Positions 4,298-61,789 of a stretch of 64,000 nt of DNA are shown one piece after another; positions within the stretch are counted from its first letter, which is position 1, and each line of letters begins with the position of its first letter. Location: the NCBI GenBank assembly GCA_965250085.1, contig OZ252287.1, forward strand, positions 416,001-480,000. The letters run 5' to 3'. The position numbers and the translations under genes were made by a program. Below the pieces are notes generated by a model, which was not told where the DNA came from, did no database searches, and was given only the letters and a program-made list of their open reading frames with translations. This DNA comes from Candidatus Altimarinota bacterium (GTDB taxonomy: Bacteria; Patescibacteriota; Gracilibacteria; CAIRYL01).

Positions 4298-5281
4298 CTA
4301 CTCTTGTGTTTCTACCTGTGCCAGCAGTATATCTGCTTGTGACTTTATTTTTTGTCCAATGGTCTGAGTTGATGGATCGTCTTCATAGGCGAGTCCTGCG
4401 AGTTCTTTTGCTTCATCTGCATATTGTACTAGGAGATCATTATCTCCTTCCAGTCCTGCTTTGTATGCCAAACAGAGAATCTTGAATCCTCTTGCTATTT
4501 TGTGAGCGGCTTGCACAATTCCTTCTTCTGGAGCCATACTGAGAGCTTGCTCGGCATAAAACACAGCATCACTGGCATCGGTCAGTGCCTGCTGAATGTT
4601 ATCTTCATTGAGATCCACGAGTACGTTTACGAGCTTTGATTCTGTAATGCTCAGCATCTTCTGAACATCTCCCCCTCTTTCTATGACGAGAAGTTTATAA
4701 ATAATTTCCGCACATTCTGCACGAGTGAGGAATCTTTCCGGTTCGAGTCTATTATCAAGCGAGGGGATAATGAGTCCCAATGTCTTTGCGTAACTCAGAT
4801 ACGGGAGGAACCATTGGCCCTCGGCAGTATCTGCCGAAATTGCTCCTACATCTTGGTGATTAGAAATATCCTCTTCAAAGGCCTGGATGAGCATTTTGAG
4901 AAATTCTGCCTTGTTGACCTGTCTCGCTGGTGCCAGATTTCCAGTCTTTCCGTCTCCCTTTACAATTCCCAGTGCCCGTGCCGTGACCGCATATGGTGCA
5001 AACCAGTCATCAGCGCTCGCATCTGGAAATCCTGTTTCTGTTACTTCTGTTGAAACTTCTATCCCAGCACTAATCAGGATCATTTTGAGTGCCTCCACAC
5101 GATTGACCGGTCCCTCGGGACCAAAATTGCCATCTGCATATCCATTGATGATTTCTAGATTTTTAAGAGACTCAATAGCCACATATTGTGGATGCGTTTC
5201 CGGTACATCTGGAAACGTTGCTGCTGTTGCGATGGAGAAATAAGAAGCAAACGCAAGGACGAATATAATGAGCCGTTTCAT
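4298..5281 (-). CDS. S-layer homology (SLH) domain protein with helical C-terminal domain
   Basis: Signal peptide; FPDV...IINGYADGNFGPEGPVNRVEALKM and two further SLH repeats. Confidence 0.88.
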   Translation of the reverse strand: MKRLIIFVLAFASYFSIATAATFPDVPETHPQYVAIESLKNLEIINGYADGNFGPEGPVNRVEALKMILISAGIEVSTEVTETGFPDASADDWFAPYAVTARALGIVKGDGKTGNLAPARQVNKAEFLKMLIQAFEEDISNHQDVGAISADTAEGQWFLPYLSYAKTLGLIIPSLDNRLEPERFLTRAECAEIIYKLLVIERGGDVQKMLSITESKLVNVLVDLNEDNIQQALTDASDAVFYAEQALSMAPEEGIVQAAHKIARGFKILCLAYKAGLEGDNDLLVQYADEAKELAGLAYEDDPSTQTIGQKIKSQADILLAQVETQE

Positions 5282-5388
5282 AATGTTTGTATAAAATAAG
5301 TATTCGGCAAAAAGATACGCCCTTTCAAAAAAAAAGTAAACAAAAATATCAGATCACTAAAATTTCACGAGCAAGCTCTTAAAAACAT

Positions 5389-7440
5389 CTATCGAATACG
5401 CTTAAGAACTGTTGAACTCTGATTAGCGAGAGTAGTGATATTTCCATTAGTTCCAGTGCTAGAGCATTGAACTTCATAATAATCATTGGCAGCAAAATTG
5501 TAGAGAAATGTCGCTGAATTACTTTCAAAATCATCGGTATTATTTCGGGAATATGCATGAGTTGTTCCTACTGCAGGATTTACTGTTACTCCATTGACAT
5601 AAAAGGCACAACTTGCAGTCCGTCTTGCATTTGCAGTCGTATCCCACGAAATATTATATGCTATTTCATAGAGACCAGCATTTGCCACAGTGACTCTACT
5701 GGGGTTCACTGCAGTAGAATGAGTATATGCTGCGTCTACTATTCGAGAAGTAGCACTCGCTCCATCCCAGTCAATTGGTGTCACAGCATTGAATGTGGTT
5801 GTCCCCGATTCATATACTTGGGCAACATCTGGCGCACTGGCAATGGATTGGAACGATCCACCATCATTGCTAAACTCCCACCTATTGGTTGTGGCGTTAT
5901 AACGCAGAATACCATCATTATCAGTACCCTGTTCAGCAATAAGATCAACATCAACTCCTGTACTCACATTATCCTGATCCAGAGTGAAAGTAGTTTCATT
6001 CGTCCCCAACCCCACACTTCCGGGAAGACCCTGATCACCTTTGTCTCCTTTGAGCCCTTCCAGTTTTACCACCGAAAAGAATATATCTCCTTGTGTGTCA
6101 TCAGCAACAGCATCTCTGGCAAGTTGAAGTGAAACAAAATCACCATCAGTAAGCTCTGCTAAGAAAGCTGAAGATGTTGTTGAATATTCACCTTGGAAGT
6201 TTTTATTATAAGAGGATGACTCTGTGAGAACTGTGGCGTCATTGATTCGCACCCGCCCAAGTGCTTCATGAGTAGATGTAGCAGTTGCACCGGCAATAAA
6301 ACTATAAATAATTTGATACAGGCCTGTTTCTTTAATCAATATACGATCAGTATTGGTATTGTCATGCTCAATAATATCAGTATTGTTTTCTATATCTGTT
6401 GTATCCAATGTTATATCTGTAAATGTAGTGGTTAAAGTAAAACTCGTAGTCCTTCGTGACTGCACAGCCGGAAACTGAATAGTAGATCCGAGAACATTCT
6501 CCAGAGGGTTAAAGCTCGTCCCATCACAAATATATGTAAATGAATCTGTCGTATCATAGTATACTCGTCCTATAGATGTTCCATCGCATGTTGGAGCTGA
6601 AGTAAGATTTTCAATATAAAAATTTTGAAGTTCGTTTCCTTCAAGACTTAAATCATTACTGAGTTCAAATCGAATATCTCCAATAGAATCGAATATAAGA
6701 GTTTGCCAAATGTCATTGTTAACTCCTAGGTTGATGGTTCCATTACTATCGGTAGCGGCATGATCATCAGCTATATACATTTCACCGACTGTGGCTAAAT
6801 TTCCTTCGATTCTCACATCATCGGTAAAGACAAATCGGGTATTGTCTACATCGTACTGCAGAAATTCTGACAAAGTACTTCCAAATTGTAAATCAATAGT
6901 GCCAGTGCTTACACTATCATCTTGGTCCAAAATAAATGTATCGGCTCCAGTAGCGTCATTTGTATACACGCTCTCGAAAATATCTGGTCCATTTTCCACT
7001 AATGGGAAACGATCCAAAATACTATTATTGATATAGGTATCCGTGTAGACAGTGTAGTTGGTATCCGGGTCTCCATCATCTTTATATTCTACCATCAAAA
7101 ATTGGTTTTCATGGGTAGTCTGAGGAAAACCTGACAAAATACTCAAGGCTATTTTCAGTCGACCTAAACCATCTGGTGTGCGAGTAGTTTCCATATTATA
7201 ATTCGCGTATTTTGAAGCACTGGTGTTAATAGCTCCTGCTCCAGTAATATCGCCACTTTCCAATCGGCCATCTGACCACAAGCTCAGACGAATATTCTGA
7301 ACAGTAGTGATAGGACTCCCATCATTGAGCGTTAAAGACACCGAAGTAAGGTAATTTTTCGCAAAAACATTTTCAAATGACCCTCCTCCGATGAGCAGGA
7401 GGGCAAGAAAGCCGAGAAAAAGTGTTTTTACAAATTTCAT
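5389..7440 (-). CDS. Secreted mosaic fibre-like protein (collagen triplets, two C1q/BclA-like domains)
   Basis: Signal peptide; LDQDD..LQFG module, APTCD...YICDG module, GLKGDKGDQGLPG, two domains with GLYxIxY motif. Confidence 0.75.
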   Translation of the reverse strand: MKFVKTLFLGFLALLLIGGGSFENVFAKNYLTSVSLTLNDGSPITTVQNIRLSLWSDGRLESGDITGAGAINTSASKYANYNMETTRTPDGLGRLKIALSILSGFPQTTHENQFLMVEYKDDGDPDTNYTVYTDTYINNSILDRFPLVENGPDIFESVYTNDATGADTFILDQDDSVSTGTIDLQFGSTLSEFLQYDVDNTRFVFTDDVRIEGNLATVGEMYIADDHAATDSNGTINLGVNNDIWQTLIFDSIGDIRFELSNDLSLEGNELQNFYIENLTSAPTCDGTSIGRVYYDTTDSFTYICDGTSFNPLENVLGSTIQFPAVQSRRTTSFTLTTTFTDITLDTTDIENNTDIIEHDNTNTDRILIKETGLYQIIYSFIAGATATSTHEALGRVRINDATVLTESSSYNKNFQGEYSTTSSAFLAELTDGDFVSLQLARDAVADDTQGDIFFSVVKLEGLKGDKGDQGLPGSVGLGTNETTFTLDQDNVSTGVDVDLIAEQGTDNDGILRYNATTNRWEFSNDGGSFQSIASAPDVAQVYESGTTTFNAVTPIDWDGASATSRIVDAAYTHSTAVNPSRVTVANAGLYEIAYNISWDTTANARRTASCAFYVNGVTVNPAVGTTHAYSRNNTDDFESNSATFLYNFAANDYYEVQCSSTGTNGNITTLANQSSTVLKRIR

Positions 7441-7454
7441 GAATATAAAAAGAG

Positions 7455-9923
7455 TTAGAGTTTTTCACCCGTCGTCCAGAAAACTCCATTCATCTCAAAT
7501 CCCACCATGATAGCATCAGAGCCATAGGTGTCGTCCGTGTCCGTCGGATCACGATAGAGCCGTAAAAAGATATTATCTCCTTCATATAACCCTGAAATAT
7601 CAATATCGGTGGTAAATTCAGAGAAAATAACTTCCGAGGCTGGACTACTACTCCCGGTGGCGGTCGTTTGAACCGTAACCGCATCAATACTCGTAATAAC
7701 ATCTCCCGTACTCCGAGCTCCTGGGTCTACATTGGTTCCGTCTGCTACCAGAACATTTCTTGCTCCAGCTTTTACATAATCAAGTTTCCATTCTACATTT
7801 CCAGTATTGCCATTCAGCTTTTTCCAGTAGATACGTACTCTCAGGCCATTGGAGGTATCTATTCCTTTTGGGATGGTTACTGATCCGGTAATTTCTTCTA
7901 ATGTTGAATTTCCATTGAATGCCGAACGAAAACGCTCATCACTCCAGGAGCCAGTGTTTCCGACCGTAAACGTCACATTATCCGGCGCATTGCTTCCCCG
8001 ACCATAAAAAATGGTTTCCGGACTTACCACAAATGTCTTCCGTTCCCGGGCTTTTCCATGAAAGGTAATGGTACCATCAGAATTTATTTCGGTTCGATTA
8101 CTATGCACTTTAAACTGCTCAAAAACTGGTGCCGTAGTAACAGCACTATCAATCCGTAAACGCACCCAATAACGATTAGTACCGGTACTCGGAGGGTCAT
8201 TTTGAACCCAGTTATCGCCTATTCTGTCTTCAAAGCGAACATGTTCATCTGTACTGGGGCGAAGGAAACAATCGCCGTTGTACGGATAAAACAGACTCGC
8301 GTGGGTACACATCACCGAAAACTCCGTCCACGCAGATCCGTTCCAGTACTCATACACAATTCCACCGGACCCCAGAGTCACTCCCGTGCCCCCCATCCTG
8401 AGTTTGTGTCCGTAAAACTTTACCAAATTACTAGCGATATCGGTTCGGTTTGTAGAAATATAAATAGCGTTATCGGCTGCCGTTCCCGGAAAAGTAAAGG
8501 TAGAACTCAAGGCGCTCGCCGCTGCGGTACTAACGTCGGCAAATGATCCTCCGGAGGTCTCAGTGTAGACGAGCATTCCATAAGTATAGCTATCTCCTTC
8601 TCCAAAAATGGATTCACTCGGTTTTTCAGGAGATCCCACGCTGAGTTCTCCAAAGACAGAGAAGGATTCCTCATTCTCGGTATCATCATTAAAATTGAGC
8701 AAAAATATGGATGAAGGATTGATATTCCATTTATCTTTATTCGCACGCCAACCGGAAAAGTAGATTTCGGCAGTAGCGGAATCAACTCGGATATCATAAG
8801 TGTCATTATTAATGACCAATCCTCCCGGTCCCTGTGCTACCGGACTCCCAGTTGGCCCCAAATAAATACCGGTGGTAGCATTTTGAACATTGATCTGCTG
8901 AATGTTAGCCACTGCACTGTCATTCACGTAGAGTGCCGTAGTTACATTAGTTGCGGTAATCATGGCTCCTGGAAAAGTCCCAATGGTTCCACTTCCGGTA
9001 ATCTCTATCCCCGTAGTTATGGTTCCTCCATTTATGGTAACGCCACTGAAAATCGTCTCTGCGCTGCTATTTACTGTTATGACTTTTCCAAACGTTCCTG
9101 TTTTAACCACTACTTCATCAGCCGTCAGGATAGTACTAGAACCTGTCACTTCTATGCCGGTATCACAGTTTTCCAGCGAAAGATTAAAAAGAGACGATTC
9201 ATCAGCCGTGTAGTAGCACGTTCCACTGGTAGCTCCTTTTAAGGTAAATCCCTCTACCATCGAATACAGCCCCGATGTAAAAATCGTATCCGTGGTATTG
9301 GCGGCTTCAATAATGGTGTTTTCAAGCCCTCCCGCGGCTTTCACTCCCACATAATCTGGGATGATCATAGCATTTTCTGTATATGTTCCAGGGTAAACCA
9401 GTACTTGGTAACGCTTGGAAGCACTTGCATCCGTGATGCTATCAAGAGCTGACTTGACCGATGTATAGTCTCCTCCGGATTTTGCTACGGTAATAGTCTG
9501 CGCGTAAGTAGTACCAGAACCATTTGCATCAATCTGTTCCCAAACTGTCCCATCGCAAATATAGGAATTGCTATCAGTAGTATTATGATAAATTTTCCCA
9601 ATCACCGTCCCGTCACAAGTAGGAGCTGAGATCAAATTTTCAATACGGGCACTCAGTAATTGATTATCACCAAAATTCACATCATCACTAAAGACAAAGT
9701 AATTATTCGTATCATCCCATAAAATAGACTCGTTTAAACTCTGTCCAAACTGAAGTTTGAGATCACCACTCGTGTCATCATTATCCAGAATAATAGTCCC
9801 AGAGTAGAGTTCTCTCACATCTCCTGAGTGAATAGCAATCTCTAGAGCCTGTGCACCAGAAAACATCCCTTCCAAAGAACATATGAGAATCGCCAGAAAT
9901 ATGCTTAAAAACTTGTGAAACAT
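7455..9923 (-). CDS. Secreted fibre/tailspike-like protein with pectin-lyase-like beta-helix
   Basis: Signal peptide; shared modules, then VAKSGGDYTSVKSALDSI...VYPGTYTE (start of a pectinesterase-like beta-helix) and beta-rich C-terminal domains. Confidence 0.75.
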   Translation of the reverse strand: MFHKFLSIFLAILICSLEGMFSGAQALEIAIHSGDVRELYSGTIILDNDDTSGDLKLQFGQSLNESILWDDTNNYFVFSDDVNFGDNQLLSARIENLISAPTCDGTVIGKIYHNTTDSNSYICDGTVWEQIDANGSGTTYAQTITVAKSGGDYTSVKSALDSITDASASKRYQVLVYPGTYTENAMIIPDYVGVKAAGGLENTIIEAANTTDTIFTSGLYSMVEGFTLKGATSGTCYYTADESSLFNLSLENCDTGIEVTGSSTILTADEVVVKTGTFGKVITVNSSAETIFSGVTINGGTITTGIEITGSGTIGTFPGAMITATNVTTALYVNDSAVANIQQINVQNATTGIYLGPTGSPVAQGPGGLVINNDTYDIRVDSATAEIYFSGWRANKDKWNINPSSIFLLNFNDDTENEESFSVFGELSVGSPEKPSESIFGEGDSYTYGMLVYTETSGGSFADVSTAAASALSSTFTFPGTAADNAIYISTNRTDIASNLVKFYGHKLRMGGTGVTLGSGGIVYEYWNGSAWTEFSVMCTHASLFYPYNGDCFLRPSTDEHVRFEDRIGDNWVQNDPPSTGTNRYWVRLRIDSAVTTAPVFEQFKVHSNRTEINSDGTITFHGKARERKTFVVSPETIFYGRGSNAPDNVTFTVGNTGSWSDERFRSAFNGNSTLEEITGSVTIPKGIDTSNGLRVRIYWKKLNGNTGNVEWKLDYVKAGARNVLVADGTNVDPGARSTGDVITSIDAVTVQTTATGSSSPASEVIFSEFTTDIDISGLYEGDNIFLRLYRDPTDTDDTYGSDAIMVGFEMNGVFWTTGEKL

Positions 9924-10057
9924 CAAAATAAAATCCTAGAGAAAAGTGCTGAAAAAGAATCCCTATATTGTATCATTTTCATCCCTAAAAACCAAGTACT
10001 TTACTAGTGCTTTAGCATATTTTTACTTTTTTACAATTTTTTTAAATTATACTTGTC

Positions 10058-10085
10058 AAAAGCCCCATCACTGAGATGAGGCTTT
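10058..10085 (-). terminator. Rho-independent terminator of the 10121-11827 gene
   Basis: Minus strand AAGCCTCATC-TCAGT-GATGGGGCTT followed by T residues. Confidence 0.65.
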
Positions 10086-10120
10086 ATGAGTTTTCCCAAA
10101 ATGAAATGTGTAATTCCTAA

Positions 10121-11827
10121 CTATTGAGTGCTATAACTGAGAACAAGTTCCCCGGCTCTCGCATCATCTCCATTCGTTGCATAGAGTTTGACGGTTACAT
10201 AGATGTATTCTCCCGCAGCAGGATCAAAGCCAGCTCCGTCAAATTCATCGGTATACTCCGTCCAAGAAGTATTCACCAGTCCTTGTCCATCAGTGGCAGT
10301 AAATGCATCATCGCCATCATCATCTTCCACGAGGATATCAAGCTGGTTATCTGCTGCCAGAGCGGTGTCAGTCTGATAGAAAAAGTTCAAATCATTCGTT
10401 GCACTCCAGTCCACAAAATCTTCTGGAAGACGTACTTTAAATTTGAGTTCAATATCCTGCTGATCAACTTTATTGGTGCGTCCGATATAATACTCATGTC
10501 CTCCGGCAGTGGTTTCCGCATCCGTATATACATTCATGCTATTACTGGTTCCATCCGCATTGACCGTCATGGTATTGATACGAACATGGAAAGACTGTTC
10601 ATCAGCAGGGAGTGCTACAAGAGCCTGATCTATGGCATCCAAAGAAGCGGTGAGAGCCTGTCCATCAGTAAGCACATTGTCGTCTGTATAGGTCCTGTCT
10701 CCAACAGCAGTATCAACTGCGTCCAAAGAAGAAGTAAAGCTCTCTCCATCCGTCACGACATTGTCGTTTGTATACGTCTGATTTCCAGACGCTACATTCA
10801 GGGCTTCGAGAGAAGCAGTAGTGGTTTGGTCATCTGTAAGCAGGAGAGAATCAGTATAGTCTTGATTTCCCAGTGCGGCATCCAGAGCATCTACTGATGC
10901 AGTGAGTGTTTCTCCATCTGTTACCACATTGTTATTGGTATACGTGGTATTCCCAATATCTCCCACAGACTGATCGAGGGCATCGATAGAAGCAGTGATA
11001 GACTCTCCATCTGTGACCACATTGTCATTTGTATAGGTTCGGTCTCCAAATGCAGTATCAACTGCTCCTAAATTTGTCTCAAGATCGGCAACAGTAGTAA
11101 TATTTCCCGCTGTTTCAACATCAATTTCCGAAGCATCATGCTTGTTTGCAGTGCCATCAAGATGGTCTGTCACAGTTGTATCAAGAGTAGAGATATCCAC
11201 TCCATCCACCGTACCACTTACGACGATGTTACCAGTGACATTGATGTCGTCAGAAAAATCAAACTCTCCATTGGTATTGTCCCAATTAATAGTTTCTCCA
11301 AGGGTTGTTCCAAATTGGAGAGAAACATCTCCACCAGTGTCATCCTGATCAAGGACAAAATTATTACTATCGGTTCCACCAATATTTGTTACGGTCGAAT
11401 CAATCCTCTGCCATGCAGTTCCATCACACACATATGAAAATGTATCTGTTGTGTTGTGATATTGTCGACCAGCGGATCCCGCATCACATGTTGGCGCTGA
11501 AGCAAGGTTTTCAATACGGGCTTCTAGGAGTTCATTTAAGTTGAGGTCGACATTCCCCTGAACATTCAGATCGTCCGTAAAAACAAACTCATTATTGGTG
11601 TCATCCCAATACAGTTCTTCGGAAAGTGTATTTCCAAATCGGAGAATGATGTCCTCACCACCAGTGTCATCAAAGTCCAGAATGAGCAGGTTTGCATTTT
11701 CTTCCTGCTGCTCATTGCTAAAGATCTGAATTTCAGCCGCAAAAGCGGGGAGTACTTGCAAGCATAGAAGCACAAAAGCTGTGAAAGCTCCTGCAATTTT
11801 CCGCAAGGTATATACATGTGTATTCAT
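10121..11827 (-). CDS. Secreted fibre-like protein with five 28-aa stalk repeats
   Basis: Signal peptide; two LDxDD..FG modules, APTCD module, GDRTYTNDNVVTDGESITASIDALDQSV-type repeats. Confidence 0.75.
   Translation of the reverse strand: MNTHVYTLRKIAGAFTAFVLLCLQVLPAFAAEIQIFSNEQQEENANLLILDFDDTGGEDIILRFGNTLSEELYWDDTNNEFVFTDDLNVQGNVDLNLNELLEARIENLASAPTCDAGSAGRQYHNTTDTFSYVCDGTAWQRIDSTVTNIGGTDSNNFVLDQDDTGGDVSLQFGTTLGETINWDNTNGEFDFSDDINVTGNIVVSGTVDGVDISTLDTTVTDHLDGTANKHDASEIDVETAGNITTVADLETNLGAVDTAFGDRTYTNDNVVTDGESITASIDALDQSVGDIGNTTYTNNNVVTDGETLTASVDALDAALGNQDYTDSLLLTDDQTTTASLEALNVASGNQTYTNDNVVTDGESFTSSLDAVDTAVGDRTYTDDNVLTDGQALTASLDAIDQALVALPADEQSFHVRINTMTVNADGTSNSMNVYTDAETTAGGHEYYIGRTNKVDQQDIELKFKVRLPEDFVDWSATNDLNFFYQTDTALAADNQLDILVEDDDGDDAFTATDGQGLVNTSWTEYTDEFDGAGFDPAAGEYIYVTVKLYATNGDDARAGELVLSYSTQ
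10619..11047 (-). repeat. Five tandem ~84-nt (28-aa) coding repeats
   Basis: GxxxYTxxNVxTDGxxxTASxDAxDxA repeated five times. Confidence 0.85.
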
Positions 11828-11915
11828 TTTGTAAGGAATAAAAGGAAACGAAAGGGATAAAAAATTGAAGAAAAATCAGATCATTATACAGGAATTTTTA
11901 ATAAAAATCAAATGT

Positions 11916-13337
11916 TTACTTTCCTATATAATTGAGTTGTGTTCTTCCCACTCGTATGACATTGCTCGAATGCGACTGCATTTTGAGCTGCAAGGTCAAA
12001 AATCCTCCTGGTGTAAACGTGGGAACCCCTCCAAAGGTAATCGCATACTCCGTCCATATACCTGCCAGAGCACTCGTAAGATCTGCTCCTCCCACAAGAG
12101 CAACCGCTGTGCCCACACTATCGTCTACAAAAACATCCACCTGATTCTCACTGCTGTCAGTGGTATCGGTGTAGACATATATCTGCAGTGGTGTTGCCTG
12201 AAAGGAAACAAAATCATCCGGAATGGGAACAATAATATGAAGATCCAGATCTTGCAGAGTAGCTTCTTGAGAAGTTAATGAATAGTATTGCTGATCACTA
12301 ACAGTATCAACCCCTTGATACAGACTTGCCCTATTGTCAGAACCATCCTGGTGCAGAGTAATGTTGTTATATTCTGGAGCCAGGAGAATGGTTTTATCTC
12401 TGTCCTTAAGAGAAGAGATATCAATATCCGTAATCGTATTATCATCACCATCTATCGTTTTGTTGGTCAGCGTCTGGGTATTATCTTCTCCCACCACTGT
12501 TGTATCCGCATCATCAAAACTCACCGTGATATCTCCCGTCAATCCCGTGGTATCGAGAGTGGCTCCATTGCCATCGTCATTGATTTCAAATGTATCGGCA
12601 TCCGTTCCCGTATCCGTATTTTGCGTATGCCCTCCGGGGAGACTGGTGATATCAACTCCATTGATCAGACCGGTCACCGTCAGATCTCCTGAAATGAGGA
12701 CGTCGTCATTAAACCGAAAATATCCTCCCGTGATGTCATATTCCAAAAATTTTCCCAGAGTATCTCCAAACTGAAGCTGGATAACATCCCCTGAACCAGC
12801 ACTATCATCCGCATCCAGAAGAAATGCATCCTGAGCAGTTTGATGCGCATCCTCTGCATGGATCGCATATGGGATCGATCCTATTGTTTTGCGATCGTCA
12901 GCATCTCCTCCGTCATCTCCAGTAGGATCCATCAATTGATAGTCTGTGTCTGCATCTCCCGAATTTTTTATCTCTACCTGCAAAAATTTGTGAATTGTAA
13001 AATCCACATTGGGCAAAGGCGTCACACTTCCCAGTTCTCTGGAAAACGTTCCGAGAGAAGTGGGGGTAAATGTATGCTCTTCCTGCCACCCGCTATAGCT
13101 GGGGGCAGTGATCTCAATCGCCCCTGCTCCGGTCAGATCTGCTCCTGTGAAATCCGAACTGCTCCAGAGAGAAAATCGAAACGTCATGGAACTGACGATA
13201 GGATCTCCAGCACTATCCAGGAGTCTTCCCTCATACAGGACCACATCTGGGATAGAGGCAAAAACAGCTCCAGAAGATGAGAGAAGCAAGGTGCAAGTGA
13301 GAGCAAACGTGCCGAGATATTTGGATATTTTTTGCAT
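11916..13337 (-). CDS. Secreted fibre-like protein with YEGRL...SIPYA N-terminal domain
   Basis: Signal peptide (MQKISKYLG...AVFA); N-domain homologous to that of 5389-7440, C-domain homologous to that of 10121-11827; TQTLTNKTID tail-fibre-type motif. Confidence 0.75.
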   Translation of the reverse strand: MQKISKYLGTFALTCTLLLSSSGAVFASIPDVVLYEGRLLDSAGDPIVSSMTFRFSLWSSSDFTGADLTGAGAIEITAPSYSGWQEEHTFTPTSLGTFSRELGSVTPLPNVDFTIHKFLQVEIKNSGDADTDYQLMDPTGDDGGDADDRKTIGSIPYAIHAEDAHQTAQDAFLLDADDSAGSGDVIQLQFGDTLGKFLEYDITGGYFRFNDDVLISGDLTVTGLINGVDITSLPGGHTQNTDTGTDADTFEINDDGNGATLDTTGLTGDITVSFDDADTTVVGEDNTQTLTNKTIDGDDNTITDIDISSLKDRDKTILLAPEYNNITLHQDGSDNRASLYQGVDTVSDQQYYSLTSQEATLQDLDLHIIVPIPDDFVSFQATPLQIYVYTDTTDSSENQVDVFVDDSVGTAVALVGGADLTSALAGIWTEYAITFGGVPTFTPGGFLTLQLKMQSHSSNVIRVGRTQLNYIGK

Positions 13338-13456
13338 ATATGTATTTCTTTCGAGAGTGTTCGAATCAGGTGAATATAGCCTATAATCTGAGCATTCTAT
13401 CATAAAAGTATATATTTTGACAATGGGAGTATTTCTTTCAAAATATTAAAGAAAAA

Positions 13457-14908
13457 TTAATTCTCTTCCTCTCTCTGTTCTCTTTTCCAAAAAAGAAAGA
13501 GAGGGAAACCCAAAAATACCAACCACAAAAAACAAGTTTTTTGTGGTGTGAGCTCAAAGAAATAGGTGGCATCCTTGGGCAGCAAGATGCCTGATACTTT
13601 TTCCCCTGCATGTATAAATTCTCGAAACTCTGAAAGATCTTCAGGAAGTATTTGAATAATATGTGCTTTGTGACGTCCCGGAGAAAGTTCACTTGGAATA
13701 TCTATTTCAAATCTTCCTTCATTATCAGCTTGGACCTCCTGCAAAAAGAGTTCACTACTTTCAAAATACGCAAAGATAAAAGCAAAAGGAATGCCCTCTC
13801 CCACAATCTTTTGATTTCTTTGTTTTCTCATTTTTCCGAGATCCACATCTGCTTCAAAATCAGTAGTGACATCCTGGTGCTCTGCAAAAGAAATAATTTG
13901 AAATGCATCATACTGCTCCCATCGGATAACAAATGAATATGTGCGAATGTGCTGTTTCTCATGTTCGTGTAATTGAGAAATAACTTCTTTTGAAATTACA
14001 AAAGAATACTCTCCATCTTCCAAATCTTCTGAATGTTCATAGGAAAATATTCCATCATTATTTGTATAAATATTTTGTTCAACTAAATGATTCTGTCGTC
14101 CATCATACACATCGATAACATACTCGGTATGAGGCTCTAATTTTCCTCCTACAAAAGGAGTTCTGTCGATCGCATAGATGACCTGTCCACGATAGTGGTG
14201 AGTCAAATGCAATTCATATTTTTCCAAATCAATGCTTTCCAGAGGACTTGGATGCAATGCTTCTTGGATAAAAGAGAGAGGATACTCCTCTTCTCGTTTA
14301 GGAAATGTGGCATCAGGAATATAAAAATCATTAATATACACATTCATGCCTCCTCCAAAAGACAGATCCGATTCTTGTGATGTTTCTGATGGTTCAGATG
14401 TTTCTGGTGATTCTTCAATTTGCTTTTCTTCCTGCCCTTGCTCTTCATCATCACAAGTACCAGCCAATGTGCACCGCACATGATGGTTACTCCCTCCACC
14501 TCCTCCTTCATTGGCGCAACTGGTTGTACTCATTGTGGTACACTCCACGCAAGTGAGGTTTCCCTCAGAAAATCCAAGATTTATACAACTTTGTCCCCCA
14601 AACTCCGTTCCATCACACATTTCACCATCTTCGATAATCCCATTACCACACACACTTATCTCTGGAATAAGATTGATTGTTTCTACAGTAAAATCACTCG
14701 AAAGTGATCCTGTCTCGATGGGAGTAATGCCTGCATGAATGTAAAAATCTGATGATTCATATTGCTGAGCACCAGTAGTGACCGTATCAAAATCCAGATC
14801 AAAATCGGCACTCGTACTGGCAAAAACACTGCTTATCACCAGCAGAAAAAAAGAAGAGAAAAAGATGCCGCAATGAAAAAGAATTTTTGTGTTTATTTTT
14901 ATGTACAA
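13457..14908 (-). CDS. Secreted, C-terminally membrane-anchored protein with Cys-rich repeat and Ig-like domains
   Basis: Signal peptide; CGNGIIEDGEMCDG (Myxococcus Cys-rich-repeat-like), poly-Gly linker, two Ig-like segments, C-terminal TM plus charged tail. Confidence 0.75.
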   Translation of the reverse strand: MYIKINTKILFHCGIFFSSFFLLVISSVFASTSADFDLDFDTVTTGAQQYESSDFYIHAGITPIETGSLSSDFTVETINLIPEISVCGNGIIEDGEMCDGTEFGGQSCINLGFSEGNLTCVECTTMSTTSCANEGGGGGSNHHVRCTLAGTCDDEEQGQEEKQIEESPETSEPSETSQESDLSFGGGMNVYINDFYIPDATFPKREEEYPLSFIQEALHPSPLESIDLEKYELHLTHHYRGQVIYAIDRTPFVGGKLEPHTEYVIDVYDGRQNHLVEQNIYTNNDGIFSYEHSEDLEDGEYSFVISKEVISQLHEHEKQHIRTYSFVIRWEQYDAFQIISFAEHQDVTTDFEADVDLGKMRKQRNQKIVGEGIPFAFIFAYFESSELFLQEVQADNEGRFEIDIPSELSPGRHKAHIIQILPEDLSEFREFIHAGEKVSGILLPKDATYFFELTPQKTCFLWLVFLGFPLFLFWKREQREEEN

Positions 14909-17342: not shown

Positions 17343-18052
17343 GGCTCTAGAGTAGGAGATTTTAAAAATCTCTGATAATTTTGGACATTATAACAAAAAT
17401 ATCTTGATCTTTATAGTTCCATCGCCACTCACATTCTTTGAGGTGAAAGTTAAACTTGTGAGAAGCAATTCCGTTAAACTTAGAGAGTCTTCTTTTCGCA
17501 AAAGACCAAAAGGATTCAATACCATTTACATGACATTTTCCTCGTGCAAATTCATTTTCTGAGTGATGAATACGATAGTGATCATATCCATTGAGAATGA
17601 GTCCATCATAAGCTCTCCATCCATCAGTATGAATAGTTGATCCTTCTAGTATTTTTCCTTGAATAATAGGTAGGAGCTCTTTTCTGGAGCAATCTTTTAC
17701 AATAGAAACAAATACCCTTCCTTCTCTTTGAAGGATTCCAAAGACAGGAGTCTTTCCTGCGGCTCCTCTTCCTCTCTTTCCTCTCACTCTCTTTGCTCCA
17801 AAGTAACTTTCATCAAGTTCAAATTCTCCAAAACTCTTTGACTGTGCTAAAGAGAACTTTGCAATCTTTTCTCTAAAAATATTAAAATATCGATCAACCG
17901 TTCTCCGATTGAGATCTAGAATATTTGCTGTTTTTGATGCATTGAGATCTTCACAAAAACACTTCAATATTTTTTTGATCTTATAATTCGATATTTTACT
18001 GTGTTTAAGCATGTTAAGAGAATAATTGAAGTAATTATTCTACTCAAGAGCC
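17343..18052 (-). mobile_element. IS1595-family (IS1016-like) insertion sequence, copy 1, 710 bp
   Basis: 13-bp terminal inverted repeats GGCTCTAGAGTAG / CTACTCAAGAGCC; flanks TTATTTTT / TAATTTTT (8-bp target duplication, 1 mismatch); near-identical to 56042-56751. Confidence 0.93.
17362..18012 (-). CDS. IS1595-family DDE transposase (ISXO2-like domain)
   Basis: ELDESYFG...GKRGRGAAGK.PVFG...IHTDGWRAYD...HVNGIESFWS..KRR. Confidence 0.96.
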   Translation of the reverse strand: MLKHSKISNYKIKKILKCFCEDLNASKTANILDLNRRTVDRYFNIFREKIAKFSLAQSKSFGEFELDESYFGAKRVRGKRGRGAAGKTPVFGILQREGRVFVSIVKDCSRKELLPIIQGKILEGSTIHTDGWRAYDGLILNGYDHYRIHHSENEFARGKCHVNGIESFWSFAKRRLSKFNGIASHKFNFHLKECEWRWNYKDQDIFVIMSKIIRDF

Positions 18053-18793
18053 TAATTTTTTTAAATGCTGTCTTTCATATGCTTCAATAATTTTTTGTAA
18101 TAATTCCGTTGGTTTAACTTCATATTTTTTAAACTCTTTTATATTTTCAGCTTTCAAATGCAATTGCCCTTCTCCCTTATTCCCTCGATGTTGTCCTTTC
18201 GAGTAATATTTATTTTTCGCTACTTCTTTTGAGGCTAAAACCCAGTATTTTATTGTATCTCTCCATACTCCAACCCATACAAAAACATCACAACATTTAG
18301 GTTTCACTTGTTGAAAATTCATATCGAATGGGAGTTTTGATTCCCATGCAAGCGCTTTTACATACAATGCTTCTCTACTGTTAAAATCAACCGCCCTTGA
18401 AGCCTTTACTTCAATTTTGATTTGCTCTCCATTTGTGAGATTGTGTAAAAAATCATACTGTCCAGAATAATTTTCATCTAACTTTTTTGTTGGTTTTATA
18501 AGTTCAGGAGCAATTTCTTTTAAATGCCCCTGTGCCCATTGTTCACCGAAAGTTCTTGGTGCAGAAATCTCAAAAATATGGAGATATAAGTTTCGTGCAA
18601 TGTATTCATCGCGAATTTCTAAATAATCATCAATTGTTATTTTTCCAAGCCCGAGAAGAGTTGAAATAATATACTCATATTCATTGAATGGATATATTGA
18701 GATAAGATTTCCCAACCTATCTCTCAGTGATTTATTGTCTTTTTTAGACAATGAATTGATAAGTTCTTCGAGTTTTTTCTTTAGAATTTCCAT
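18044..18793 (-). CDS. Putative type II restriction endonuclease (PD-(D/E)xK)
   Basis: YD...IEVKASR motif; directly downstream of a DNA methyltransferase; last codons lie in the IS end. Confidence 0.75.
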   Translation of the reverse strand: MEILKKKLEELINSLSKKDNKSLRDRLGNLISIYPFNEYEYIISTLLGLGKITIDDYLEIRDEYIARNLYLHIFEISAPRTFGEQWAQGHLKEIAPELIKPTKKLDENYSGQYDFLHNLTNGEQIKIEVKASRAVDFNSREALYVKALAWESKLPFDMNFQQVKPKCCDVFVWVGVWRDTIKYWVLASKEVAKNKYYSKGQHRGNKGEGQLHLKAENIKEFKKYEVKPTELLQKIIEAYERQHLKKLGS

Positions 18794-18797
18794 AATG

Positions 18798-20762
18798 CTA
18801 TTTTAAAAAGTTAGTAACATATTCAATCTCTTTTTCTGAAAAATTAAATTGTGCAAAAATGTATTTATCAAGTTTTTCAAAAGAAGATTGGTTATTGATA
18901 ATTTCATCAACAAGAGAGACAATCTCTTTTAGTACTTCATCCTTCCAAAGAGGTATCGGCATTTGTTCAATATGATTTCGTAAAACTTTTATGCTTGAAA
19001 ATTTTTTCTGAAAAATAAACTGATATAAAGAAGAATTAAACAATGCAGAAATAACTTTGATTGAATAATTTTCAAGTTTAGGAATAACAATATTAGCACT
19101 ATTTAAAGTAAGTTGTTGCTTGTCATCATAGGCAAATACTAATTTTTTTGAAATAAATTTATAAATTAGTTTTTCTTTTGCACGATATTTTTCGATAGGG
19201 GCAACTTGTTGAAATTTATCAGGAGTAAATAATATATAATTTGACGGAGCTTTCAATTTAAATTTTTCAACATCTTTTCCTTTATAGATTGGCTCAAAAT
19301 CTTTTTGATGCTCTGTGACAATATGTTTTTTATTGTCTCCTGTTACAATTCCAAGTGCCCAATCAGCATTGTTCAGTAAATTTGTGTGCTTGGTATTATA
19401 AACTTTTTCAATAATATCCATATCTATATCATTGGCGTGGATATTGAAAACAAAATCTTGATTACTTTCCCATTTTGATTGAGGGATATTATAATTTTCT
19501 TCATCTTTTATGATTTCAATTTCTTGTAAACTTTCTTCTTTTGTTATATCTAATCGTATTACAGGAGTGAAAACATTTTTAAAAACTCTGTTGAGGTAAA
19601 AAACTTTCTTGATTTGTGTATTTTTTAAAATTATCTCCCTTATATCTTTATGTGTTTTTACATTTAAAATTGATTCAGGAAGAACAAAAGAAATAATTCC
19701 TTTGTCATTTAATAAATCAATACTTTTCTTTAAAAAATAAGAAAATGACTCAAAGGATTGTATTTGTGGGTATAAAGTTTTTAATTTTTCATTATCATTT
19801 TTTGAAAAATGAACTCCCCAAGGTGGATTTGTTGCAATAACATCAAAATCTTTAATATTTTCATCATTTAAACTAAAGAGGTCGTAATTTCCAATTTCAA
19901 AAAGTGTATTTTTACAAACAATATTTGGTGCAAAATCTATATTCTTATATTTCACAAGTAAATTTAATCGAGCAATTCTAACGGCAATCTCGTCAATATC
20001 TACTCCATAAATATTTTTTGGGTCTTCAATTTTATCTGCAAAAGCAAGTAAAAATTGTCCAGTACCGCAACAAGGATCAAGCACCTTTGAATCCTCTTTT
20101 ACATAATCTGAAATAATTTTGCTGACAATATTTTCTGGTGTGTAATATGATCCATTCTGTGATTTTTTCCCTTCTGATAAAAGTGATTGATAGATAAAGC
20201 CTAAAATATCTCTTTGCGTTGGTAGTTGATAACTAAGCAAAAAAGAATACTCTGGTGTAATTTTATTTACATCAATTTCGGATTGCCATGATTTTAACTC
20301 TTCATTGACTTGTTTATTATTTGAAATAATTACTTTTCCAAGAATAATATCTTGAATATCTATTGTTGTAATAATATTTTCTTTTTTTAGTAGATTAAGA
20401 GATAAAAGAAAAAGAGATGTTTTTATACTTGTCTTTCTTCCGTGAATAAAAGAAATTATTGGATCAATATTACTAGACTCAATATTTGAGTTGAAATATT
20501 CATCAGGAATAAACATTTTTTTAGATTTTGATTTATTTGCTCGTCCATTTAATTTATTTATTTCTCCATTTTTAATATTGTTTTTTACTTTCTGAATTTC
20601 TTGAAAATAAAAATTATATTTATTATTTGAAATAGGTCTTAAATCTCCACATTTAGTCCAATTACGAACAGTTGCAGTGGAAACACCAAGAAGAAGTGCA
20701 ACATCTTCAATGTTTACAATTTCTTTTTCCCCCATAAGTGGTGTCATTGTGCTATTTTGCAT
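18798..20762 (-). CDS. Amino (N6-adenine-type) DNA methyltransferase with N-terminal HTH and TaqI-like C-terminal specificity domain
   Basis: GSYYTP, VLDPCCGTGQFL (motif I), IATNPPWG (motif IV); N-terminal IEDVALLLGVSTATVRNW HTH; visibly AT-rich relative to flanks. Confidence 0.92.
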   Translation of the reverse strand: MQNSTMTPLMGEKEIVNIEDVALLLGVSTATVRNWTKCGDLRPISNNKYNFYFQEIQKVKNNIKNGEINKLNGRANKSKSKKMFIPDEYFNSNIESSNIDPIISFIHGRKTSIKTSLFLLSLNLLKKENIITTIDIQDIILGKVIISNNKQVNEELKSWQSEIDVNKITPEYSFLLSYQLPTQRDILGFIYQSLLSEGKKSQNGSYYTPENIVSKIISDYVKEDSKVLDPCCGTGQFLLAFADKIEDPKNIYGVDIDEIAVRIARLNLLVKYKNIDFAPNIVCKNTLFEIGNYDLFSLNDENIKDFDVIATNPPWGVHFSKNDNEKLKTLYPQIQSFESFSYFLKKSIDLLNDKGIISFVLPESILNVKTHKDIREIILKNTQIKKVFYLNRVFKNVFTPVIRLDITKEESLQEIEIIKDEENYNIPQSKWESNQDFVFNIHANDIDMDIIEKVYNTKHTNLLNNADWALGIVTGDNKKHIVTEHQKDFEPIYKGKDVEKFKLKAPSNYILFTPDKFQQVAPIEKYRAKEKLIYKFISKKLVFAYDDKQQLTLNSANIVIPKLENYSIKVISALFNSSLYQFIFQKKFSSIKVLRNHIEQMPIPLWKDEVLKEIVSLVDEIINNQSSFEKLDKYIFAQFNFSEKEIEYVTNFLK

Positions 20763-24125: not shown

Positions 24126-24755
24126 CTAATTGTTTTTGACAATATGGTCCACAAGACCATATGACTTGGCCTCTTCCGCTGTCATAAACTTGTCTCGCTC
24201 TGTGTCCTGTTGCACCTGATCCAATGGCTTCCCCGTGTGCTTTGCAATCAGTTCATTGAGGATATTTTTGGTTTGCAATATGTGCTCTGCTGCAATAGCG
24301 ATCTCTGTAGCCTGTCCCTCTGCTCCACCTAGAGGTTGGTGAATCATGACTTCTGAATGTGGCAAAATAAATCGCTTCCCCTTTGCTCCTCCCATGAGAA
24401 TAATAGCTCCTCCTGAGGCTGCGAGTCCTACACACACCGTTGCTACATCAGGTGCAACATAGTTCATAGTGTCGTACATCGCCAGAGTAGCCGTCACACT
24501 TCCTCCTGGAGAATTTACATAGAGTGTAATATCTTTTTTTGGATCTTGCTTTTCCAAAAATAGCAACTGTGCAATCACTGTATTGGCAACAGCATCATTT
24601 ATTTGCGATCCCAAGAAAATAATTCGCTCTTCCAGGAGTCGAGAATAAATATCATACGCCCGCTCTCCTTGTGGTGTTTTGTCTATTACTGTCGGTACGA
24701 GGACATTGTTTTGTGGTGGGGTGAAATTTTTTGTCTGGGAGGTGATTTGGTGCAT
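24126..24755 (-). CDS. clpP: ATP-dependent Clp protease proteolytic subunit
   Basis: [55 protein letters not shown]. Confidence 0.98.
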
Positions 24756-27461: not shown

Positions 27462-28658
27462 ATGTATACAAAAGTAGCAAAATACTTGGTGACAAGCTTC
27501 TGCTTATTGCTGTTCACATACTTTTCCATTCCTACCCTTGCCCAAGAAGACACCTGTGCAGGATTTTTGGATGTTCCGGCAGATCATGAGCTCTGCTCGG
27601 CTATTTCATATGTAAAAGAACATGGTGTATTTGAAGGCTATCCAGATGGAACATTTCATCCTGATGCAGAAATTAATAGAGCAGAAGTGTTAAAAGTTTT
27701 TCTCAATACATTCTATAACACGATGTTTGACCCTTATAAAAATAATTTTCAAGAATTTCTAGATGTAAAAGTAACAGATTGGTATTTCCCATTTGTTCAA
27801 CGTGCAAAAAAATACAATTTTATAAGTGGATATATAGATGGAAGGTTCCATCCAGAAAGGAGTATCAATCGAGTTGAAATCCTTAAAATGCTCCTCAAAA
27901 TAACAGGTGAGATTGTTCCTGAAGGCATTGAAGAGTCTCCCTATAGAGATGTTCCAGTTGATGAGATGACTGAGTGGTATATCGGGTATGTACAGTTTTC
28001 GAAAGAAAACGATCTTTTTGATATTCCACTGAGCAATAAGTTTTATCCAGATCAGGCGGTGACACGAGGAGAAGTAGCTGAGTTGCTCTATCGCTATTGC
28101 CAAATATCTCAGTGTGCATTCAAAACAGAAGACCTGGATGCAGATGATCATGTGTATGGGAATACAGACGCCACAGTCTTACTGGTTGAATATTCTGATT
28201 TTGAGTGTCCATATTGTCAGAGATTTCATACAACCGTAAAAGAAGTGGTCGATAACTCTGAGGGAGAAGTCGTATGGGTATATCGTCATTTTCCTCTCAC
28301 TATTCATTTTGGAGCGCAAAAAAAAGCGGAAGGAAGTGAGTGCGCCGCAAAAATCGGCGGTGAGGAAGCTTTTTGGGAATACACTGAAACACTCTTTGCT
28401 GATGATGCGAATTATTCTGTCGAAGAATTAGGGGATCTCGCTTTTGAAATAGGACTGGATAAAAACGAATTCCAGGACTGTCTTGATTCCGGAGAAATGA
28501 TGAGTGCGGTGCAGAATGATCTTGAGAGAGGGTATAACGCTGGTGTTAATGGCACCCCTGGAAGCTTTGTCATCAACACAAAAACAAGAAAAGCATTGTA
28601 TGTCCCCGGAGCGGTCCCGATAGAATTTGTAGAACAAGCAATAGAGAGTGTTCGATAA
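27462..28658 (+). CDS. SLH-anchored DsbA/thioredoxin-fold oxidoreductase
   Basis: Three SLH repeats; EYSDFECPYCQRFH, YRHFPL, GVNGTPG. Confidence 0.9.
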   Translation: MYTKVAKYLVTSFCLLLFTYFSIPTLAQEDTCAGFLDVPADHELCSAISYVKEHGVFEGYPDGTFHPDAEINRAEVLKVFLNTFYNTMFDPYKNNFQEFLDVKVTDWYFPFVQRAKKYNFISGYIDGRFHPERSINRVEILKMLLKITGEIVPEGIEESPYRDVPVDEMTEWYIGYVQFSKENDLFDIPLSNKFYPDQAVTRGEVAELLYRYCQISQCAFKTEDLDADDHVYGNTDATVLLVEYSDFECPYCQRFHTTVKEVVDNSEGEVVWVYRHFPLTIHFGAQKKAEGSECAAKIGGEEAFWEYTETLFADDANYSVEELGDLAFEIGLDKNEFQDCLDSGEMMSAVQNDLERGYNAGVNGTPGSFVINTKTRKALYVPGAVPIEFVEQAIESVR

Positions 28659-42509: not shown

Positions 42510-42925
42510 GAAAATTTTTGAATTTTTAATTTTATAATTTTTAAATAAATTCTAAATCTTAATTTTTAAACAACAATCATTAACTCGAATTTTTCTTTAT
42601 TTTAGCAAAAATAAGGGTAAGTTCGTGTGCTTCTTTCCACAATTTTCTGCATTTCGTTCGCTTCTTTGGTGCAAATTGATATTTTATTCCGAAAATCCTT
42701 CTTAGAACTTGCTTGATTGGCTTCCATATAATTTGCTCTAATACTTGTTGCAGAGCGAATCAACTGTCGAATTATTGGTTTTGTAATCTCGTTTTGATCT
42801 AACTCTTTCAGAAATATAATTACTGATTCTCCAAATTTTTCCGTTCTTTCTTCCAAGTCATATTCCATTGAGAACATTAAAAATTATAATTTATTTATAA
42901 AATTAAAAATTAGAAATTTAAAATT
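42510..42925. mobile_element. Four-helix-bundle cassette with AT-rich inverted heptamer arms (decayed)
   Basis: Arms 42510-42570 and 42878-42925 are imperfect reverse complements (core AAATAAATT/AATTTATTT) enclosing the pseudogene; mobility itself is inferred. Confidence 0.55.
42580..42877 (-). pseudogene. Four-helix-bundle protein pseudogene
   Basis: DLEERTEKF...QLIRSATSIRANYMEA...SKKDF..KISIC.KEANE; internal deletion with frameshift, and the C-terminus CRKLWKEAHELTLIFAKIKKNSS* is in another frame; conserved SIGANY Gly is Arg. Confidence 0.85.
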
Positions 42926-56041: not shown

Positions 56042-56751
56042 GGCTCTAGAGTAGGAGATTTTAAAAATCTCTGATAATTTTGGACATTATAACAAAAATA
56101 TCTTGATCTTTATAGTTCCATCGCCACTCACATTCTTTGAGGTGAAAGTTAAACTTGTGAGAAGCAATTCCGTTAAACTTAGAGAGTCTTCTTTTCGCAA
56201 AAGACCAAAAGGATTCAATACCATTTACATGACATTTTCCTCGTGCAAATTCATTTTCTGAGTGATGAATACGATAGTGATCATATCCATTGAGAATGAG
56301 TCCATCATAAGCTCTCCATCCATCAGTATGAATAGTTGATCCTTCTAGTATTTTTCCTTGAATAATAGGTAGGAGCTCTTTTCTGGAGCAATCTTTTACA
56401 ATAGAAACAAATACCCTTCCTTCTCTTTGAAGGATTCCAAAGACAGGAGTCTTTCCTGCGGCTCCTCTTCCTCTCTTTCCTCTCATTCTCTTTGCTCCAA
56501 AGTAACTTTCATCAAGTTCAAATTCTCCAAAACTCTTTGACTGTGCTAAAGAGAACTTTGCAATCTTTTCTCTAAAAATATTAAAATATCGATCAACCGT
56601 TCTCCGATTGAGATCTAGAATATTTGCTGTTTTTGATGCATTGAGATCTTCACAAAAACACTTCAATATTTTTTTGATCTTATAATTCGATATTTTACTG
56701 TGTTTAAGCATGTTAAGAGAATAATTGAAGTAATTATTCTACTCAAGAGCC
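56042..56751 (-). mobile_element. IS1595-family (IS1016-like) insertion sequence, copy 2, 710 bp
   Basis: Same 13-bp terminal inverted repeats; perfect 8-bp target duplication TTTATTAA (56034-56041, 56752-56759). Confidence 0.96.
56061..56711 (-). CDS. IS1595-family DDE transposase
   Basis: Identical to the 17362-18012 product except one Val/Met change. Confidence 0.96.
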   Translation of the reverse strand: MLKHSKISNYKIKKILKCFCEDLNASKTANILDLNRRTVDRYFNIFREKIAKFSLAQSKSFGEFELDESYFGAKRMRGKRGRGAAGKTPVFGILQREGRVFVSIVKDCSRKELLPIIQGKILEGSTIHTDGWRAYDGLILNGYDHYRIHHSENEFARGKCHVNGIESFWSFAKRRLSKFNGIASHKFNFHLKECEWRWNYKDQDIFVIMSKIIRDF

Positions 56752-61626: not shown

Positions 61627-61789
61627 GAGAAAACGGGTAAAAGGGAAAATGTGTCTCCAATTTAACTCTCTCTGTCCAGAGAAATCAATAAAAAATACTT
61701 CCGCACCTTTCTCTTTTTTTACAAAGAACTTATCTTGCTCGCAGAAATAAAAAAATGTACAGTTCTCGAGCCTCTTTTTCGTGGCATCA

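Follow-up and report, generated by a model that had tools for sequence, protein, structure and literature searches.

The window analysed here is a stretch of 64,000 nucleotides from Candidatus Altimarinota bacterium (contig OZ252287.1, positions 416,001 to 480,000), whose 1.37 Mb genome consists of a single contig. At positions 4298..14908 it contains a cluster of six genes for secreted proteins, four of which resemble fibres. All six open reading frames (ORFs) are intact and lie on the minus strand at the coordinates first noted; we name them by the lower coordinate. They encode a 483-aa anchor protein (13457..14908), core fibre 1 (11916..13337), core fibre 2 (10121..11827), two variable fibres (7455..9926 and 5389..7440) and an SLH protein (4298..5281). 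As described in the initial annotation, the genes are co-oriented and the cluster is flanked by a membrane-anchored Cys-rich/immunoglobulin (Ig)-like protein and the SLH protein. Signal-like N-terminal peptides ending in small-x-Ala are found in all six proteins by eye and hydropathy. In the case of 11916, the ORF was called from 13403, and a probable start at ATG 13337 restores a normal signal peptide. The fibre proteins are 470–820 aa long, very acidic and Thr-rich, and the GC content of the cluster resembles that of the chromosome.

The four fibres are mosaics of common modules, with pairwise scores controlled by 200 shuffles per pair. Module A is present in all four, in five full copies (two in 10121), and all ten pairwise scores (85–150) exceed the shuffled maxima of 48–64. 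Module B occurs in three fibres, its copies having 26–31 identities in 46–47 aa (scores 148–178 versus at most 49 after shuffling). The N domain is common to 11916 and 5389 (163 versus 58) and the C domain to 11916 and 10121 (176 versus 75). The YEGRLLD motif, initially assigned to both N domains, is found in 11916 only, the N domain of 5389 being degenerate at this site. Core fibre 1 is organized as N-A-stalk-C and core fibre 2 as A-B-A-five 28-aa repeats-C. Protein 7455 combines A-B with a tailspike-type tip, and 5389 has the order degenerate N-A-B-C1q-like-short Gly-X-Y-D-C1q-like. Each fibre had been thought to have its own stalk or tip, which holds for 7455 and 5389, whereas 11916 and 10121 have the same tip. 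The repeats of 10121 (10613..11044) number five and are spaced 31, 28, 28 and 28 aa. Within the whole genome, modules N, A, B and C, the 28-aa repeat and the C1q-like domain are confined to this cluster. Repeats at the DNA level connect the 28-aa units with one another and, in one instance (35 bp), A-B regions; there is no sign of wholesale recent conversion between the fibre genes.

No family in Pfam, PHROGs or NCBIfam matches any of the four fibres above the cut-off; weak matches to CbiN, COG4_N and PMT_C3 were rejected. Searches of the PDB with sequence profiles of N-A, A-B and C gave nothing significant. The best of these matches (E 0.28) aligns the end of module A with a puncture protein of a phage and is a lead only. 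Look-ups of the proteins in sequence clusters yielded almost no names, a single-protein genome scan gave no match, and relatives of P0105 bear an archaeal label that we did not trust. Consistent with the initial annotation, PHROGs revealed no capsid, terminase or integrase gene among the six cluster genes and 40 other ORFs of at least 120 aa in the window, although two fibre parts do have close viral homologues. PHROGs matches to a 'head maturation protease' at 24126-24755 probably reflect a host ClpP, and by our own reading those to a 'major tail' family coincide with SLH repeats; three more proteins (27462-28658, 42924-45620 and 59989-61836) match the same PHROG family as the SLH repeats of 4298. 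Promoter-like sites in total are not above chance (32 versus 30.7 expected). The three best, at 14948-14920, 13423-13394 and 11911-11883 on the minus strand, lie directly upstream of the anchor gene and the two core fibre genes, and two of them share TTGATT-17-TATAAT.

Core fibres and the N domain

The relatives of 11916 that have a name come under the labels Gracilibacteria, Peregrinibacteria or Peribacteria, and 7 of the 23 named-relative loci, six of them from other lineages, match only a short stalk motif. A profile of the core fibre detects 86 of 251 genomes of the class Gracilibacteria, an A-B profile 80, and both profiles 75; several families have no core fibre at all (0/31, 0/16 and 0/13). 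In the phylum as a whole, the N-A profile matches 45 of 401 genomes, one of which (G189) is unpublished and enters no other result. Strong matches covering module A are restricted to the class, while those in other classes are weak, confined to N and located in frames of 300–3900 aa. Of the modules, for A and B of which the initial annotation suggested testing a restriction to the candidate phyla radiation, A alone seems specific to the class; module B and the N superfamily occur widely. The locus plan consists of the anchor, an N-A-C fibre, an A...C fibre and between zero and about four A-(B)-tip genes; the SLH gene lies alongside, and some loci split the plan into divergent halves. The idea of genes shuffled from common parts is therefore borne out as regards their mosaic structure, but the shuffling is not free: the anchor, the two C-tipped fibres and the SLH protein are conserved and the downstream genes vary. 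The operon is also present in genomes in which TGA is read through (L028, G448). A second locus in genome G021 (L036:7680-13331) has its C domains in short pieces and is perhaps a decaying copy.

In the AlphaFold2 monomer of 11916, the N and C domains are confident and the A-stalk region is poorly defined. The N domain (12843..13256) is predicted as a confident beta fold. When three copies of residues 187–495 were modelled, the complex scored 0.83, versus 0.38 for the best of three controls, with at least 89% of contacts shared between runs and pLDDT values of at least 86. In a calibration on two-copy complexes, which fits a three-copy job only roughly, 20 of 30 solved pairs and 1 of 23 single chains attained this mark. 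The contacts in the model run through module A and the stalk (12405..12830), which interlock over the three chains. Modelled for the A-stalk-C part of 11916 alone among the fibres, the result supports a homotrimer. The C domain (11919..12404) is predicted to be a galactose-binding-like jelly roll, i.e. a carbohydrate-binding-module (CBM) fold. Its match to CBM61 (2xom) has a VIA Z of 12.5 and a root-mean-square deviation (rmsd) of 2.9 over 135 aligned residues; many similar folds lie within 2 Z units, and C-terminal domains of tailspikes match as well. The fold-search lists for 11916 are filled by matches to C and not to N.

The sequence of the N domain suggests a relationship to the MAT fibres of Bdellovibrio. 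The MAT N-terminal family NF053851 matches the 11916 N domain over most of its profile (E 3.5e-4, 20.4 bits; 18–20 bits across searches), and 10 of 34 N domains match at E<=0.01, the best at 2.1e-9. The cut-off is 60 bits. The N domain of 11916 is thus likely homologous to MAT_N without being a MAT member by the curated test. It is found in 11916 and 5389 and is absent from 10121 and 7455. In the Atlas, N matched unnamed clusters from Verrucomicrobiota and Bacteroidota at 0.91–0.92. Profile searches reached distant N proteins, some labelled Bacteroidetes, with S74, collagen, YadA-head and BclA_C domains, and among seven N fibres scanned from other Patescibacteria classes two carry S74 and three YadA heads. 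Since both the distant proteins and the fibres of other classes bear S74 or YadA heads, N belongs to an extended family of domains at the base of fibres, MAT_N being one of its branches. In a scan of 41 genomes, NF053851 matched a single protein (L072, G008:C17), in which the N domain is combined with YadA-head repeats; its contig is short and seems not to belong to the bin.

According to the parts of Caulton et al. 2024 (PMC10769870) covered here, all 21 MATs share a domain of ~130 aa after the signal peptide, 13 of the 21 have an S74 chaperone, and the surface partner of the N domain awaits identification. The cluster resembles MATs in its signal peptides, beta-rich N domain of ~130 aa (by remote homology), trimeric shaft (as modelled for 11916) and swappable tips, including TNF/C1q-like heads, and several paralogues per genome. 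The differences are that N is present in two of the four fibres, that the proteins measure 470–820 aa versus 626–1959 aa for MATs, and that the fibre genes share an operon with those of a membrane anchor and an SLH protein, in Patescibacteria and not in a diderm predator. Pfam detects S74 neither in the window nor in 83 proteins that bear module A, which fits the non-S74 type of MAT. These fibres are built like MATs and probably work like them. Neither Gracilibacteria, Peregrinibacteria nor Parcubacteria are found in the supplement of PMC10769870, one file of which lies outside that search.

Other known systems are less similar. The C-termini of the cluster proteins are soluble beta domains, with no Pfam match to the YadA membrane anchor of trimeric autotransporters at E<=1. 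The attachment factors of Patescibacteria that we compared (type IV pili, type IV secretion systems, large Saccharibacteria adhesins and Cys-rich proteins of Peribacteria) are likewise surface-exposed, strain-variable and proposed to serve host attachment, but differ in architecture. In the portions consulted, PMC4736985 describes large, Cys-rich, strain-variable extracellular proteins of Peribacteria and PMC11452946 lists pili, secretion systems and VCBS proteins of Gracilibacteria. Neither trimeric fibres nor this operon appear in the portions covered of these two papers, PMC10633639 and PMC11665869. No description of the operon was found in the full-text literature searched, which lacks most subscription papers and preprint supplements. 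The system is apparently a variant of MAT-like fibres that has not been described before, its candidate anchor being encoded in the same operon.

The anchor, the X domain and the SLH partner

The anchor consists of a signal peptide, an X domain (14660..14824), a Cys-rich segment (CGNG...EXCD; 14453..14653), an Ig-like stalk and, by hydropathy, a C-terminal membrane helix (13484..13537) followed by a short charged tail. The conserved part is not the Cys segment, which is DUF4215-like in 1 of 15 relatives and present in 44 of 251 genomes, but the ~55-aa X domain at the mature N-terminus, with three Ser-x-x-Phe/Tyr-x-hydrophobic repeats. X has one copy in the source genome; a second protein with the Cys-rich segment, encoded elsewhere (G000:C1:875854-877599), lacks it. 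The X profile matches 54 of 251 genomes, 52 of which also have the core fibre, and X is fused or adjacent to the N gene in 37 of 59 loci, many of them seeds of the profile. In 23 of 62 N proteins, from several families, the anchor position and the N fibre form a single protein, with 200–630 residues preceding N, and 14 of these 23 carry X by profile. By eye, the junction comprises a membrane helix, a short and mostly basic loop, a second signal-like stretch and small-x-Ala before N. This reads as an anchor and a fibre made as one chain and cut by signal peptidase. In two fusions (L064:15961-18933 and L118:7060-10167) a helix-turn-helix, transposase-like part stands in frame before the anchor.

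X also accompanies N outside the class. Among ten genomes of other classes chosen for an N-only fibre, six (one of them a profile seed) have X upstream of this fibre, co-oriented with it and less than 10 kb away. In these operons, the proteins made of a signal peptide and X are 230–280 aa long, and gene maps show two ending in a dockerin. Because X tracks N across the phylum while its own tether to the surface changes, it behaves as expected of an adapter, and we regard it as a candidate docking site for N. Atlas matches of X (0.75–0.78) are uninformative. The other-class X operons (L126-L131) also hold several ~300-aa proteins with a signal peptide and a membrane helix, which belong to no Pfam family, and fibres of up to 3900 aa; their layout presumably resembles that of WxL operons, with no Pfam match.

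The SLH protein (SLH E 1e-22) is the only cluster protein in which Pfam detects SLH domains. Its helical C-terminal domain is found in 98 of 251 genomes and travels with the operon: 77 genomes have both this SLH partner and the core, 9 the core only and 144 neither. Among 70 genomes with both and with known positions, the two are on the same contig in 50, in 48 of these less than 20 kb apart.

Variable tips and viral homologues

Clustering and variation of the tips, anticipated by the initial annotation, are evident in the relatives, where 82 tips from the loci fall into 40 clusters. In 83 of 97 A-bearing database proteins together with 40 proteins from the loci, Pfam matches include BclA_C/C1q, F5/8C, MAM, H-lectin, SO2946-like, TIG, LVIVD and collagen; most tips belong to no Pfam family, and S74 is found in none of them. 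Within a genus, some tips are kept and others replaced; tip turnover is real but not extreme. Operon proteins of 1036–1224 aa with up to three C1q-like domains (L017, L019, L020) have no detected module A. In 5389, both C1q-like matches (BclA_C E 1.7e-5, C1q E 0.0014) are under the cut-off. Of the collagen initially reported, there are six Gly-X-Y triplets (residues 462–479) between the two C1q-like domains and no Pfam collagen match. Heads of the C1q/BclA_C type link 5389 and many relatives to BclA and other C1q-headed collagen-like proteins, from which 5389 differs in its few triplets and its two heads in series.

The tip of 7455 is a predicted right-handed parallel beta-helix (8643..9521) followed by two beta-rich domains. 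The helix matches 8ja4 with a VIA Z of 26.9 (rmsd 2.3, 263 residues aligned) and tailspikes with Z of 24–27; the fold-search lists are filled by the helix and not by the two following domains. The protein aligns loosely end to end with Kp32gp38. The same order of a parallel beta-helix and beta-sandwich domains is known from phage tailspikes and fibres (CBA120 TSP2/TSP4, Kp32gp38, K2-2), which also share the CBM-like terminal domain with the cluster and have sequence homology to the 7455 tip and the 28-aa repeats. Tailspikes can dock on one another in branched assemblies. In contrast to them, a signal peptide and an A-B shaft replace the virion-binding head here, and the genes are chromosomal. 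Judged by fold, 7455 is thus of the tailspike type, yet it has a signal peptide, and no virion module was detected among the ORFs scanned in the window.

Homologues of the 7455 tip are found in 27 viral contigs, and in 9 of the 12 loci checked this type of tip adjoins portal, capsid, baseplate or other virion genes. Among the 251 class genomes it occurs in one, the source genome itself. Besides the 7455 tip, there are 55 other homologues, of which 47 lack and 8 have a signal-like start by eye and profile; four of the eight carry module A, three module D and one neither that we detected. A tree made with a quick method (76 rows; 4 duplicates were dropped) unites all nine copies that have a signal-like start in a single branch (SH-aLRT 100), surrounded by viral rows and rows without a label. 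Capture of the tip from a phage is the simplest reading of these sequences, with the direction undemonstrated under a midpoint root. The 28-aa repeats of 10121 are 50% identical to a stretch of a viral-contig protein. Otherwise, 10121 and 5389 have short weak matches in viral collections and the A-B region weak fibre-like ones. The core fibre was found in none of 58 candidate stretches of viral contigs and in none of 50,697 phage records. An outcome that the initial annotation named as contrary to its view, homologues mainly inside prophage tail operons, therefore applies in part: most homologues of the 7455 tip lie in phage virion modules, those of the core do not.

Candidate mechanism, rival explanations and neighbouring genes

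The locus is real as first observed, with small corrections, and its interpretation as a set of secreted, mosaic, trimeric fibres of the Bdellovibrio type is partly supported: remote MAT_N homology, the trimer model and glycan-binding folds agree with it, while the N domain stays below the family cut-off. We favour, with moderate confidence, anchored and host-binding adhesive fibres of the MAT type, built from one operon and gripping hosts via surface glycans. All six proteins would be exported by Sec and cleaved by signal peptidase I, and each fibre would trimerise via interlocking modules A and B and stalk repeats. The anchor would be held by its C-terminal helix in the membrane of a monoderm-like cell, with X lifted on the Cys-rich/Ig stalk. 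Gene fusion and co-occurrence suggest that X binds the N domain of core fibre 1; three X repeats for three chains are a guess. Since the N-less fibres carry no other anchor, they may join the core fibre via a conserved first strand and module A, which is the weakest step. Its linkage suggests that the SLH protein may stabilise the fibres at the cell wall. General contact with glycans would come from the conserved, CBM-like C tips, and the downstream genes would provide exchangeable tips, some from phage receptor-binding proteins, that set the host range.

In a broader and more speculative version, which we consider rather doubtful, X serves MAT-type N domains in general as their receptor on the cell surface, each chain taking one repeat, and the anchor that bears X can be exchanged (a membrane helix in this cluster, a dockerin or another wall-binding domain in other cases). 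Many Gracilibacteria would make the anchor and fibre as a polyprotein cut at the internal signal peptide, and N-less fibres would branch off the core to form a bouquet resembling a phage baseplate, its tips restocked from phage receptor-binding genes.

Several observations weigh against the proposed attachment fibres. We know of no host for this organism. Since 165 of 251 class genomes, whole families included, show no core gene, this cannot be a class-wide attachment device, and the counts overstate independence, the genomes being related and partly incomplete. Tips within a genus are often kept at 46–68% identity, a slower turnover than a fast arms race predicts. The trimer model may owe its score to a likeness to solved phage fibres. 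No N domain reached the NF053851 cut-off, either among the 34 compared or in the 41 genomes. The SLH partner is present without the core in 21 of its 98 genomes. X was not detected near the N gene in 22 of 59 loci; in other classes, it is on another contig in 2 of 10 genomes and was not found in 2 of 10.

If the proposal is right, the operon is a testable model of how probably host-dependent tiny bacteria grip their hosts. To our knowledge, most Gracilibacteria have no known host, and the soluble tip domains could serve as probes to find them. The locus also gives an example of a secreted bacterial fibre that bears a tailspike domain of phages, and the anchor-fibre fusions, with their internal signal-like peptide, lend themselves to a test of polyprotein processing in bacteria. 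X is a candidate for the surface partner of the MAT N domain.

Among the rivals, the one that survives best, unlikely as it is, holds that the fibres act on free polysaccharide (biofilm matrix, capsule or particles), which they bind or cut for residence or feeding, and not on a specific host cell, the helix of 7455 being a depolymerase. The best matches of this helix are indeed alginate epimerase/lyases and depolymerase tailspikes, 3 of 56 homologues of the tip are labelled pectate-lyase-3 or pectinesterase, the CBM fold of the conserved tips fits, and anchor-plus-dockerin forms resemble enzyme display. However, a common fold does not show catalysis, the beta-helix tip is found in a single class genome, and most tips are non-catalytic, being lectin-like or C1q-like. 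We give still less credence to the idea that the fibres protect or space the cell surface as a coat, or act as decoys for phages and predators, with the SLH protein linking them to the S-layer. Tight linkage to that protein, BclA-like heads as in spore coats and the acidic, Thr-rich sequences are compatible with a coat, whereas the diversity of glycan-binding tips and the tailspike domain point to recognition of something outside, and the fibres themselves have no SLH domain. Equally improbable in our estimate are adhesive fibres displayed or released singly, with X and the SLH protein as co-regulated neighbours and not binding partners. The X profile has no match in 34 of 86 core genomes, and promoter-like sites precede three genes; against this stand the anchor-N fusions across several families and the X-N linkage in other classes. 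A remnant of a prophage tail module, suggested by the viral homologues of the 7455 tip and 28-aa repeats and the weak A-B matches, is highly improbable and already largely refuted by intact genes with signal peptides, a conserved core order in a third of the class genomes, chromosome-like GC and the lack of the core in the viral collections searched and of virion genes nearby.

Elsewhere in the window, a transposase gene, which we take to be IS1595-like, is present at 17362-18012 and 56061-56711. It has 14 near-identical copies (99–100%) in the genome, the result of a recent expansion. Beside the insertion sequence, at 18044-20762, are a DNA methyltransferase and a probable restriction enzyme of low GC (27–33%). 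At lower coordinates than the cluster, a YebC-like gene (1648-2313) matches 213 of 248 profile positions and has an unrelated-looking tail, making a frameshift possible. The 114-aa protein at 1277-1621 presumably resembles four-helix-bundle/rRNA-intervening-sequence proteins.

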